Origin: a virus
Lineage: Duplodnaviria > Caudoviricetes
DNA length: 64,000 nucleotides
Strand: one strand, 5' to 3'
IMG/VR virus record: IMGVR_UViG_3300031992_000007
Coordinates: 160,001 to 224,000 of that record
This document shows positions 17,561 to 46,495 of the stretch, one piece after another. A model generated the notes under the pieces. The model saw nothing but the letters and a program-made list of their open reading frames with translations, was not told the origin of the DNA and did no database searches. The position numbers were made by a program, and so were the translations under genes. Position 1 is the first letter of the stretch; every line of letters begins with the position of its first letter.

Positions 17561-17568
17561 GTAATATA
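17561..17568 (-). promoter_or_regulatory. phiKZ-type early promoter TATATTAC
   Basis: Exact match upstream of the HNH/nvRNAP beta genes. Confidence 0.7.
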
Positions 17569-22329: not shown

Positions 22330-23577
22330 TTAACTCAAAGTGAACAGCGGAACCTGGTAGTCTCTGATCAATGAACGTGAACACAATGCGTGTACCGACA
22401 AGTCAACGTAGTAACGTTTGCACTTATCGTTCGCATACCTAAAGGTAATATATACTTCTTCCGCCCACGAGCGCGCTACGTGTACAGAAACTACGTTCTG
22501 CAACTTGAGCTCTCGGATTTGGTGGATGACTTTCTTTACCACGGTATCTTCCGCCTGAGTGTGGTCAGCACCAAGCGTACGACTTTGGATGTTCATGTCA
22601 AACGGATTATACCTACGGAAATAACCCGGTTGTACTGAGCTTACTGCAAGTTCGAATTCACCATAGGGTATTGCTTCGATGTACTCAATTATCGAGAACA
22701 CATCGCGGTCATCATTTCTCTCGACATTGATCTCCGTGTCACTTGGAAGTGGCTCCATCATGAATCCACGCTGGAAACAGTGAAGACCAAAACTAGGACT
22801 AATGAGATACATGATCTCTTTCAGAAGAACTGGACCCCACAGTAACAGTTTGAGAACTGCACATGTCGAGAGAGGTGAAGTATCAGTCCACTTTTCGGGA
22901 AGCTCAGCACCTCTAAGAACATCTATTGGGTCAGGTCTGTACCAATCATCTTCGAACGCGTAAATGTCCGACAGTGCTCTTATGTTCGCACCGATCGTCA
23001 GGTAAAGATCCTGTCCGTTCACCTCAGGTTTGAACTCACTTATTCTGACGATGTCATCTCTGGATGGATAGTTGACGAGCAGCTTGACTATTTCTGGACT
23101 CGGATAGAACATCAAGTTATTGAACGCTCCAAGTTCATCTGCGATGGCAGCTTCGATTGGAACGTCCTTTGTCTCATCTATCTCGAACCTCATGAGAGCT
23201 CGTACATTTTCCCACAGGATGTACTTTCTTCGTTTGTACGTTTTGGGGTCGGTTACTGCAACCCACAGACAGTAGAGTAAAGTCTTCTTCGATTTCCCAA
23301 TGTGCAATACATCAATGGGTGACTCGGATAGACAGAAGTACTCCACTATTCCGTGGATTGTATTCTCGATCAGCTTGAACCTGAACCAAGTATCGACACC
23401 TGTCGGAACATCCGTCTCGGCACCGAACTCAATGAACATGTCATCAGAGGGCGATTCGAACCCGTATACCCTTTGAATGTTGGATATAGGAGGACAACAG
23501 GATACCTCTGACGATACCTCGGCCGTTCGTTTGAACTGTTTGAGCCTTCTTGGTAGAAGGACTATATCGTCGATCAT
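22330..23577 (-). CDS. Hypothetical protein, paralog of 23587-24780, possible divergent PicA paralog
   Basis: Shares GVxxWFx(F/Y)KL and V.V.RS..E(E/D)V.IT...Y.DL.....S..LI with its neighbour. Confidence 0.6.
   Translation of the reverse strand: MIDDIVLLPRRLKQFKRTAEVSSEVSCCPPISNIQRVYGFESPSDDMFIEFGAETDVPTGVDTWFRFKLIENTIHGIVEYFCLSESPIDVLHIGKSKKTLLYCLWVAVTDPKTYKRRKYILWENVRALMRFEIDETKDVPIEAAIADELGAFNNLMFYPSPEIVKLLVNYPSRDDIVRISEFKPEVNGQDLYLTIGANIRALSDIYAFEDDWYRPDPIDVLRGAELPEKWTDTSPLSTCAVLKLLLWGPVLLKEIMYLISPSFGLHCFQRGFMMEPLPSDTEINVERNDDRDVFSIIEYIEAIPYGEFELAVSSVQPGYFRRYNPFDMNIQSRTLGADHTQAEDTVVKKVIHQIRELKLQNVVSVHVARSWAEEVYITFRYANDKCKRYYVDLSVHALCSRSLIRDYQVPLFTLS
22445..22452 (-). promoter_or_regulatory. 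Early promoter TATATTAC upstream of picA (inside the preceding gene)
   Basis: Exact match 140 nt upstream of the picA start. Confidence 0.55.
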
Positions 23578-26582: not shown

Positions 26583-26590
26583 GTAATATA
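26583..26590 (-). promoter_or_regulatory. Early promoter TATATTAC
   Basis: Exact match in the intergenic region upstream of the gp68-like gene. Confidence 0.7.
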
Positions 26591-35270: not shown

Positions 35271-35278
35271 GTAATATA
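35271..35278 (-). promoter_or_regulatory. Early promoter TATATTAC for chimallin
   Basis: Exact match about 110 nt upstream of the chmA start. Confidence 0.72.
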
Positions 35279-43212: not shown

Positions 43213-43238
43213 GTTAGCCTCCTGATAAAAATAAAAGT

Positions 43239-43249
43239 CATAAAATTGA
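43239..43249 (-). promoter_or_regulatory. Candidate late promoter (TCAATTTTATG, TATG core)
   Basis: An identical 11-mer lies at 46522-46532; both are about 25-30 nt upstream of likely late genes. TATG is the phiKZ late consensus. Confidence 0.45.
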
Positions 43250-43294
43250 CGGGCGTATTATACCTATATAAAAGAATGAGAGTTACCCATGTAA

Positions 43295-43673
43295 TGCTGA
43301 TCAAAAAAGAGAGGGCCGGTTAGTAGGATAACCGACTCTCTCTTCAACTCACAACAAACATGCACTGAAGTAAAACCCAGATTGAGCACTGCTATCGATG
43401 ATGGTGGACCGACTATCTAACCAGTAAGGCTATTGCCATACCGCGAAGGATAACGGACATTATTGCCACAAACTTCGCACGACCGTGAAGACCGTGAAGT
43501 TTTGTGTCGCACAGCAAGAGCCAGACGGCTAAAGCTGGTTTACCAAACAAAGAAAGTAGTGCCATTTCTGGGTTCCTTTGTGAATGGTTATGGCTGGACC
43601 TGGGAGAACCTCTCCCAGTGTCAATCCAGTCTTTACACTTCAGTAATGTATAAGTGAGCATTTTTGATCAGCA
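43295..43673 (+). ncRNA. Large structured non-coding RNA candidate (~380 nt), family not recognised
   Basis: A 13-bp perfect terminal helix encloses at least 8 nested helices; G-U pairs favour the + strand; no credible ORF. Confidence 0.65.
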
Positions 43674-43707
43674 CTTTCAATTTCTCAAGTAAAGAAAGGA
43701 ATAACTA

Positions 43708-45400: not shown

Positions 45401-46495
45401 TTATTTCTTTCTGTTCTTGTGGGTGGTCCATGCCTGCTTAAGAGCTTCTAGAGCTTTAATCCTAGCAGGTTTAGGGATGAAGCTTATGATGCTAACGATG
45501 AACATCACTACCTTCATAACTCCTACCCTTAGTTTCTGAAACCAATTAAGTTCCTTTTCTACAGGTTTAGGAGCTTCCTCTACCGGAGCAGGTGTGTCTT
45601 CATCTATTACCTCATCATCTAGGTGAGAGCCGATGTGTATCTTTTTGCTTTTGGACTTCTTGCGGAAAATGCTCGATAGACAAAGTGTCAGGATAATAAC
45701 ACATATGGCTATTGCGGCAGAACCGAACAATATGAGGATGGTTTTCTCAGATCTTGTTAGGACGTGATCCACAACATTCTCAGCACGATCCATGGTGCCG
45801 TTGACTTCATGAACGACTTCTTTGACTTCTTTGACGACGTTAGTGGCGCTGGATATGGTACCTTCAAGGGGATTTACCAAGTCATGCACCGTATCGGTTA
45901 CAGGATCAGTAACAGCCTTGATTACCTCAGGGGTTTTGTTGACAACATTGTCCACTCCTGTTGGTTTAAGGTTAGCTACAGACACCGCATTAGAGGTAAC
46001 TGCTTTAGCACCCAGTTGCATAACAGCATCTCTAGTCGTCACGATAGAGTCGGGGAACTTAGGAGCTTTAGCAGCTGTAACTACACCCTCTGCTAACTTT
46101 AGCTTGACCTCCATAGGAACATCAGGATTGACGAAGGCTTCATTCAAGTTACCCTCGTTGAACTGAAGGTTAGACCTAAAAGTAGTGATCTTATTTTCTG
46201 CGCCTGAAGCAGAGAAGATCCCACCGCCAGCAGAGGTAGTGGACTCGAATGAAGCCCCGCCTCTAACAGCAGCAACTACTTGTTTAGAAGAGCCTATAAC
46301 AACACCAACATAGTTAGCATCACCTACAGGAACTCTAGCAGCGAAGCCCATGGTCTCGTTCTCGATAAGCATGTTGTGACCACACCCAGCATTAAGCAGG
46401 ATAAGGACAACACACAATAAGACCAACAAAGCTTCCATAACCGGACTTCCTCCCATGAAAATGAGGAAGTCTAACCAATTACGTATTCTGTTCAT
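45401..46495 (-). CDS. Membrane lipoprotein with C-terminal transmembrane segment(s), possible unimolecular spanin
   Basis: LLVLLCVVLILLNAG-C lipobox; TM segment ILILFGSAAIAICVIILTLCLSSIF followed by RKKSKSKK; second hydrophobic segment near the end. Confidence 0.55.
   Translation of the reverse strand: MNRIRNWLDFLIFMGGSPVMEALLVLLCVVLILLNAGCGHNMLIENETMGFAARVPVGDANYVGVVIGSSKQVVAAVRGGASFESTTSAGGGIFSASGAENKITTFRSNLQFNEGNLNEAFVNPDVPMEVKLKLAEGVVTAAKAPKFPDSIVTTRDAVMQLGAKAVTSNAVSVANLKPTGVDNVVNKTPEVIKAVTDPVTDTVHDLVNPLEGTISSATNVVKEVKEVVHEVNGTMDRAENVVDHVLTRSEKTILILFGSAAIAICVIILTLCLSSIFRKKSKSKKIHIGSHLDDEVIDEDTPAPVEEAPKPVEKELNWFQKLRVGVMKVVMFIVSIISFIPKPARIKALEALKQAWTTHKNRKK

Follow-up and report, generated by a model that had tools for sequence, protein, structure and literature searches.

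We favor, with some reserve, the interpretation that the strongly folded element found at positions 43295-43673 of the window, a 64,000-nt stretch of phage DNA, is a self-contained early cassette, read from the minus strand and specifying a small protein through an mRNA which folds back on itself, and not a plus-strand non-coding RNA of ~380 nt. The window corresponds to bases 160001-224000 of a 265,480-bp IMG/VR virus record (G000 in the coordinates given below) which, as judged from sequence, is that of a phiKZ-like jumbo phage; the gene starting at G000 8535 matches phrog_3231, the major head protein, and PF25620 (PhiKZ_MCP) adjoins uvsX in the locus of one relative. The element sits in a 495-nt gap (43213-43707), bordered on one side by a 783-aa minus-strand gene of unknown function (phrog_3289) and on the other by a 478-aa UvsX-like plus-strand gene (phrog_97).

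In the proposed scheme, a promoter of the virion-RNA-polymerase type (upstream box 43661-43673, octamer 43643-43650) would start an RNA near 43636; beyond a 5' hairpin and a Shine-Dalgarno (SD) sequence, this RNA would contain the 50-aa ORF (43565-43413), specifying a hydrophobic peptide of two helices, and then a 3' UTR of ~100 nt. It would end at, or partly read through, a terminator-like hairpin and U-run near 43303, for a predicted length of about 335 nt. The SD-ATG spacer and the first codons would pair with the 3' UTR (helices P4 and P5), and the resulting lock might be released through RNA processing, by the ribosome, or by a second RNA, antisense or competing. We thereby infer the start and end of the transcript, the translation of the window ORF, the translational gating and the function of the peptide. 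The anatomy, its conservation in seven phages, and both the coding selection and the mRNA-fold covariation seen in the relatives are directly supported.

All six long-range helices of the original prediction were found where it had placed them: P1 (43295-43307/43661-43673, 13 bp), P2 (43348-52/43654-58, 5 bp), P3 (43364-71/43637-44, 8 bp) and P4 (43374-81/43567-74, 8 bp) are perfect Watson-Crick helices, P5 (43386-43393/43555-43562) contains one G.T and P6 (43403-10/43537-44) two. The local hairpins proposed at 43307-44 and 43592-631 are likewise present. The minimum free energy (MFE) of the 379 nt is -148.6 kcal/mol on the plus and -150.7 on the minus strand, with fold z-scores of -9.75 and -9.99, respectively, when 100 shuffles per strand are used, and of -10.8 and -7.6 with 60 shuffles. 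The suggestion that G-U pairs favor the plus strand holds for P5 and P6 only, the MFE structures as a whole having 6 G.U pairs on the plus versus 17 on the minus strand. No tmRNA, RNase P or intron-type signature had been recognized by eye, and the Rfam search agrees: no match in the whole window reaches the gathering score, those listed at E<=10 being noise at chance level. Rfam covariance models, including those of tmRNA, RNase P, introns, retron msr and hok/sok-type RNAs, gave no match in the loci of five relatives either, and blastn of the gap against GenBank phages found nothing similar.

Along the minus strand, the right arm of P1 (43661-43673), the perfect 13-bp complement of the left arm, doubles as the upstream box of an early promoter. 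It is similar to the upstream boxes of other early promoters of the genome, for example aatgTTGATCAAttc at G000 19121, and the 25 nt upstream of the window octamer, arm included, closely resemble the upstream part, aatgTTGATCAAttctgttgacaga, of the promoter located there; the 12-nt spacing from upstream box to octamer is the same as at 111753. The octamer itself, TACATTAC (43643-43650), has one mismatch to the genome-wide word TATATTAC, and from it a transcription start at about 43636 is predicted. A sigma-70 scan found a single weak minus-strand site, at chance level. Right after the predicted start comes hairpin HpA (43592-43631), a feature kept in 7/7 phages with differing sequences, and then the SD sequence AAGGA (43574-43578), 8 nt before the ATG at 43565; at the matching place the relatives carry GGAGG or GAGGGGG. 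The 50-aa ORF (P0064; 43413-43565, minus strand) corresponds in position, strand and size to a gene of 55-58 aa in the relatives, and a public protein collection contains exactly its 50-aa product. The gap, previously described as non-coding, is not simply so: the last 50 codons of its 82-aa minus-strand ORF make up this ORF with an SD of its own. In the minus-strand MFE structure the 5' arm of P4 (43567-43575, partner 43373-43381) falls between the SD sequence and the start codon, codons 2-4 being within P5. The unit is closed by hairpin HpB (43303-43344, minus strand), whose stem (43307-43344) is followed by UUUUUU (43308-43303) and whose inner stem is matched, on the minus strand, by a terminator scan. 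A stem of 13-16 bp (-13 to -22 kcal/mol) plus T-run is found in 7/7 phages; 4 of the 13 HpB pairs covary, and 95% of the cells are paired. Beyond it lies the left arm of P1 (43295-43307), the other half of the flanking inverted repeat.

Genome-wide, no AT-rich word is more intergenic-specific than the octamer TATATTAC. Of its 18 copies in the 265-kb genome, 15 are intergenic and 17 belong to the minus strand, most copies being found 40-120 nt ahead of a gene start. Jumbo-phage early promoters are ~10-nt AT-rich motifs whose center is near -10 and which have a T-rich upstream part (PMC7598289, PMC8244752), and since TATATTAC fits this description we take it as the early promoter, recognized by the virion RNA polymerase. 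Within the element it is exact in five relatives, and reads TATATCAC in a sixth (L037). An extended form, (c/t)aTATATTAC(c/t)tnnnTG, can be written for the motif, a subset of copies having a TTGATCAA-like box 12 nt upstream; the window has copies, each of them minus-strand, at 17561-17568, 22445-22452, 26583-26590 and 35271-35278, and a further 14 occur in the genome.

Also enriched across the genome, 23-38 nt before starts, is the motif cAtTTTATGa(t/c)ttt, which matches the TATG core of the phiKZ late consensus, T-3ATG+1 (PMC7598289); examples precede the genes starting at 46495 (minus) and 52079 (plus) of the window. The 783-aa gene has such a late-type motif 27 nt before its ATG (TTATG core 43239-43243, minus strand, G at 43239, context CAATTTTATGAC), as in all relatives, and so is served by a promoter of its own, outside the element. 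Another, degenerate octamer, TATAATAC (43255-43262, minus strand), for which the relatives have AATATATACA, lies 50 nt before the start of this late-type gene and may be a further early promoter for it. On the uvsX side, relatives lacking the cassette have a TTATG 40-50 nt before uvsX; in phages bearing it, uvsX is without a proximal TTATG promoter, and a TTATG or ATATG is found opposite the SD of the small gene. In the window this candidate core (43588-43592, plus strand) is a weak match opposite the 5' UTR of the small gene, the distance being 116 nt, and may serve uvsX-sense transcription.

UvsX homologues form a graded series of identity. The closest phages, at 82-88% UvsX identity, are L011, L012, L034, L035 and L036, to which L037, a short contig without uvsX sequence, was added by means of a peptide profile. 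All six have a gap of ~500 nt at the matching place, and in it a ~340-370-nt unit on the minus strand. The layout is common to 7/7 phages, the window included: octamer, predicted start at a conserved GTAA(A)GA, 5' UTR of 71-85 nt with a hairpin, SD, ORF of 50-58 aa, 3' UTR of 91-107 nt, and a 13-16-bp hairpin with T-run. The predicted transcripts measure 337-371 nt across the seven, and a 12-17-bp inverted repeat, P1, brackets the whole unit.

The element is absent from UvsX relatives at <=64% identity, and nhmmer found no match to it in the distant uvsX loci. At the matching site the gap of L031 and L032 measures ~115-140 nt and is accompanied by a divergent 137-aa gene, L014 has an HNH-endonuclease-like ORF run into uvsX, and L013 a 1357-nt array of GGCTCTCC-bounded repeats. 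Given these differing contents, the site is variable and the element specific to one small clade. An 18-mer scan of IMG/VR returned a lone match, L039, which shares no further similarity and was dismissed as a chance match. The L013 array (L013:1644-3000, in a relative with 64% UvsX identity) consists of ~8 units of ~140 nt, each ending in GGCTCTCC and restarting with GGAGGT, whose frames specify G/Y/W-rich peptides ending in ...RLS; GGCTCTCC occurs 53 times in the genome of the window, 23 of them intergenic. In L014 (L014:1616-3883) the Cys-rich ORF of ~295 aa is in one frame with uvsX (755 aa, P0010), and looks like a free-standing homing endonuclease at a variable site; P0006 (778 aa) and P0015 (828 aa) are of similar length.

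The ORF of the L011 group has a pN/pS of 0.14-0.21 (L011 versus the other members), its variable sites being distributed 11/7/23 over codon positions 1/2/3, the pattern of a real gene under purifying selection. Translation of the 82-aa minus-strand ORF had been named at the outset as an outcome that would count against a non-coding RNA, and with the relatives' ORF under such selection that outcome is nearly reached. The 58-aa product of L012 shows 31% identity (shuffle z 8.7). A profile search of 1.8 billion representatives added a sole further and distant member, P0065 (E 4.7e-7), encoded on a 629-bp contig with a matching layout and a fold z of -7.0. The family motif (A7) is LQGxVIxxEGPxxGN...FW...AH. 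The peptides, 50-58 aa long, are predicted to contain two hydrophobic stretches, and the AlphaFold model of the family is a two-helix hairpin (H6-25 and H32-54, pLDDT 76). Searches of Pfam, PHROGs and PADLOC with the peptides found no relative, and the ESM Atlas no usable match. The family, previously unnamed, has six members in phiKZ-like metagenomic phages and no Pfam/PHROG match. In a comparison with class II holins the two-helix prediction fits; the promoter motif is of the early type, and holin families gave no match for the peptides, which are shorter than typical class II holins.

The ORF of the window shows no detectable similarity to this family. The family HMM (hmmsearch) failed to match it at 43413-43565, or any other ORF of the window or of the whole genome; the shuffle z of the 50-aa product against the family is about 0, and among 5.8 billion proteins only the product itself was found. 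Its AlphaFold single-sequence model is nevertheless a two-helix hydrophobic hairpin (H3-20 and H27-49, pLDDT 72). Because family similarity is missing, its coding status depends on position, SD and shape. The phage is otherwise close to the L011 group (86-87% identity in UvsX, 69-79% in the 783-aa protein), nearer than L012 is, and at about, or nearly, the distance separating the members of the group in both proteins. Similarity between window and relatives, as detected by blastn, ends at the inner ends of both P1 arms, from which we conclude that the interior has been replaced, or changed beyond recognition, with the layout kept.

A shared fold of the mRNA was evaluated on the ORF strand of the six relatives by RNAalifold. 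With a consensus structure derived from the very alignment being tested, 84.9% of the cells are paired, versus 77.5+-0.9 in shuffles, and 26 pairs are changed on both sides, versus 12.8+-2.5 in shuffles (none of 500 reaching 26) and 3-14 in slid controls. Covariation in homologs, suggested earlier as a check, thus exceeds both types of control. Helices of the coding region covary too, many conserved G.U pairs occur on the ORF strand, and in L011 and L012 the minus strand, the sense of both the 783-aa gene and the ORF, folds 27-30 kcal/mol better than the plus strand. These data support selection on the fold of the relatives' ORF-sense mRNA. The region of the start codon has, in every phage, its pairing partner a short way past the stop codon (10-40 nt in the relatives). 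In the window, in silico, the 3' UTR is paired to the SD-ATG spacer by P4 and to codons 2-4 by P5; with its start region so engaged, the ORF would be expected to remain untranslated as long as the fold stays closed. The idea of a novel phage non-coding RNA survives in part, selection for structure at the RNA level being supported and no known RNA family matching; a non-coding RNA on the plus strand, or a leader of uvsX, is unsupported. From the evidence, the main RNA is a minus-strand one, the mRNA for a small protein with a promoter and terminator-like hairpin of its own, and no feature was found in support of a ribozyme, a retron/DGR substrate or a scaffold RNA.

The long-range helices have a recognizable origin. 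The 54 nt at 43345-43398 (plus strand), which include the left arms of P2-P5 and on the minus strand are the 3' UTR of the small ORF, are 83% identical to G000:C1:8493-8543 (E 5.8e-7; local alignment z 15.5), a stretch which runs from the end of the gene preceding that of the major head protein, through the spacer, and into the first head protein codons. The right end of the element, on the minus strand, is an inverted copy of the same junction module, interrupted by HpA; the left copy is interrupted by HpB, and the third is the one at the capsid gene. P1-P5 arise from pairing of one inverted copy with the other. Within the blocks that pair (CTGAAGT, AACCCAGA and GCACT), left and right copies agree with each other and differ from the capsid junction, which would fit either tuning for pairing or gene conversion. 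In the minus-strand RNA, this part of the 3' UTR is complementary to the region where translation of the capsid mRNA starts, and a duplex of -69.5 kcal/mol is predicted for the two. The cassettes of the relatives do not resemble the capsid junction of this genome.

It would be a long shot to see in the cassette RNA a timing device coupled to capsid expression or, separately, in the flanking repeat the mark of a new exchangeable promoter-to-terminator cassette of jumbo phages. According to the timing version, the 54-nt capsid-complementary stretch of the 3' UTR would also lock the ribosome-binding site of the small ORF, with two conceivable outcomes: the early cassette RNA might repress translation of the capsid protein, or the capsid mRNA, abundant at late times, might open the lock and switch on a small membrane peptide late in infection.

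The outer helices are not accommodated by the cassette model. In the coordinates of the minus-strand promoter, the right arm of P1 spans about -38 to -26 and that of P3 -8 to -1; lying at or upstream of the promoter, the right arms of P1-P3 cannot be part of the predicted minus transcript, and these helices cannot form in it. The model thus leaves P1, the 13-bp flanking repeat, as well as P2 and P3 unexplained. P1 is nonetheless kept in 7/7 phages by compensatory changes (AAAAA/TTTTT, GAAA/TTTC, GAAGCCA/TGGCTCC, CGACCGAGGC/GCCTCGGTCG). Its single mismatches, G.U or A.C depending on phage and strand, are too mixed to allow a strand call. A plus transcript starting at the TTATG of 43588-92, inside the element, would exclude the left arms. 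Candidate explanations for P1 are a closing or processing stem in a plus-strand read-through RNA, a function at the DNA level, or arms kept matched by recombination. No other P1-like motif is present in the 265-kb genome, a scan of IMG/VR for the P1...P1 pattern gave no match, and no target-site duplication is seen at the flanks of the element.

The cassette model is supported by the blueprint common to seven phages; by the strongly intergenic octamer (15/18, with 17 copies on the minus strand); by the relatives' ORF, a real gene with a covarying ORF-sense fold; by the SD of the window ORF, the presence of its product in a protein collection and its helical hairpin, like that of the family; and by the precedents of phiKZ (PMC10914365) and of hok fold-back (PMC9841398). 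It is weakened by the missing family similarity of the window ORF despite closeness to the L011 group, by window strands which fold about equally well, with P5 and P6 carrying their G.U on the plus strand, by P1-P3, unable to form in the transcript even though P1 is kept by compensatory change, and by the mismatch in the window octamer. The first of these points could be turned into a different account, in which the ancestral small gene was lost or replaced, the ~335-nt early minus-strand transcript acts as RNA, and the 50-aa ORF is fortuitous. Such an RNA would agree with the unrelated ORF, with a fold stronger in the window (z about -8 to -10) than in the relatives, and with the predicted antisense duplex at the head protein translation start. 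We regard it as unlikely, given that SD, ATG, lengths of ORF and UTRs and the predicted two-helix product all match the coding relatives, as is hardly to be expected of a dead frame.

Another account is a uvsX-sense transcript running across the element, either as a long leader or as the antisense partner of the small-gene mRNA, in which P1-P6 would all form: only a plus-strand RNA starting left of 43295 could hold both arms of P1, P2 and P3, HpB has no U-run on this strand and so would not stop it, and the G.U pairs of P5 and P6, the compensatory changes of P1 in seven phages and the lack of a proximal TTATG promoter for uvsX in cassette-bearing phages all point the same way. Such a transcript is, in our view, no likelier than the non-coding minus-strand RNA, as no convincing plus promoter is found to the left of 43295, a transcript from the best TTATG (43588-92, internal to the element) would lack the left arms, the plus strand of the relatives folds 27-30 kcal/mol worse, and the P1 mismatches are mixed. 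Alternatively, the outer helices may have no RNA role, an inverted duplication of a ~75-nt promoter/5' UTR/start module bracketing the cassette; its upkeep would be due to template switching or gene conversion, or to its being the ends of an exchangeable, invertible or mobile cassette. The two inverted module copies and the third at the capsid gene, the end of similarity to the relatives at the inner ends of P1, the endonuclease-like ORF (L014) and the repeat array (L013) found at this site elsewhere, and the location of P1 outside both predicted transcripts are consistent with this explanation. We hold it to be rather improbable, however: the element is single-copy, its P1 motif recurring nowhere in the genome, it lacks a target-site duplication and an adjoining recombinase gene, it has one orientation in 7/7 phages, and arms of 13 bp, 350 nt apart, are unfavorable for template switching.

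Among known systems, the small-protein cassette would correspond to a moron-like unit with a fold-back mRNA of the type I toxin kind. Translation of hok mRNA is inhibited by fold-back pairing of its 5' and 3' regions (PMC9841398). Like the type I toxin mRNAs (hok/sok; PMC9841398, PMC2887945), the cassette is a compact self-contained locus for a small peptide of 50-58 aa, predicted to be hydrophobic and helical, and features, in silico, long-range 5'-3' pairing over the ribosome-binding site. The weak TTATG at 43588-92, on the opposite strand, is a candidate promoter for an antisense RNA, which would overlap the 5' UTR by ~45 nt. Unlike most type I toxins, which have one helix, the peptide is predicted to have two, and the cassette resides in a lytic jumbo phage under a phage early promoter, with no Rfam or Pfam family match. 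In phiKZ, promoter-plus-terminator units have been described, together with short abundant RNAs ended by 5'-proximal terminators (PMC10914365). With these RNAs, and with phage morons, the cassette shares the autonomous promoter and terminator unit between conserved genes, a short structured transcript, an intrinsic-type terminator and possible read-through into the next gene; it differs in its maintained 12-17-bp inverted repeat and in the structural selection acting on the whole mRNA, coding part included. Two further types of element fit less well. Invertons such as fimS are alike in being a ~380-bp segment between divergent genes, with short inverted repeats and a promoter at one end; the single orientation in 7/7 loci, the lack of an adjoining invertase gene and the interior long-range pairing, unexpected in an inverton, speak against this class. 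Similarly, a MITE-like mobile element is at variance with a P1 motif unique in the 265-kb genome and not found in IMG/VR, and with flanks devoid of a duplication.

These observations indicate that the fold signal of a phage "gap", even a very strong one, can stem from the mRNA of a tiny gene, and not from a non-coding RNA, and describe a new family of small proteins in which peptide and mRNA fold are both under selection. Fold-back gating, if true, would mean that translational locking in the style of type I toxins also operates on early genes in lytic phages that form a nucleus. The exchange of the ORF within constant inverted-repeat borders and the captured capsid-leader fragment bear on the evolution of such cassettes, and on their possible wiring into the infection timetable.

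Two other gaps of the genome, both outside the window, deserve mention. The 714-nt gap at G000:C1:69529-70242 has an early octamer at 70128 (minus strand), whose upstream region (CATTTCTTCGT) finds its complement in a 10-mer located 454 nt downstream, and fold z-scores of -5.5 on the plus and -2.5 on the minus strand; it may be another early unit bracketed by an inverted repeat. The 268-nt gap at G000:C1:36267-36534, between two minus-strand genes, contains several GC-rich hairpins, its fold z-scores being -6.0 on the plus and -7.3 on the minus strand.
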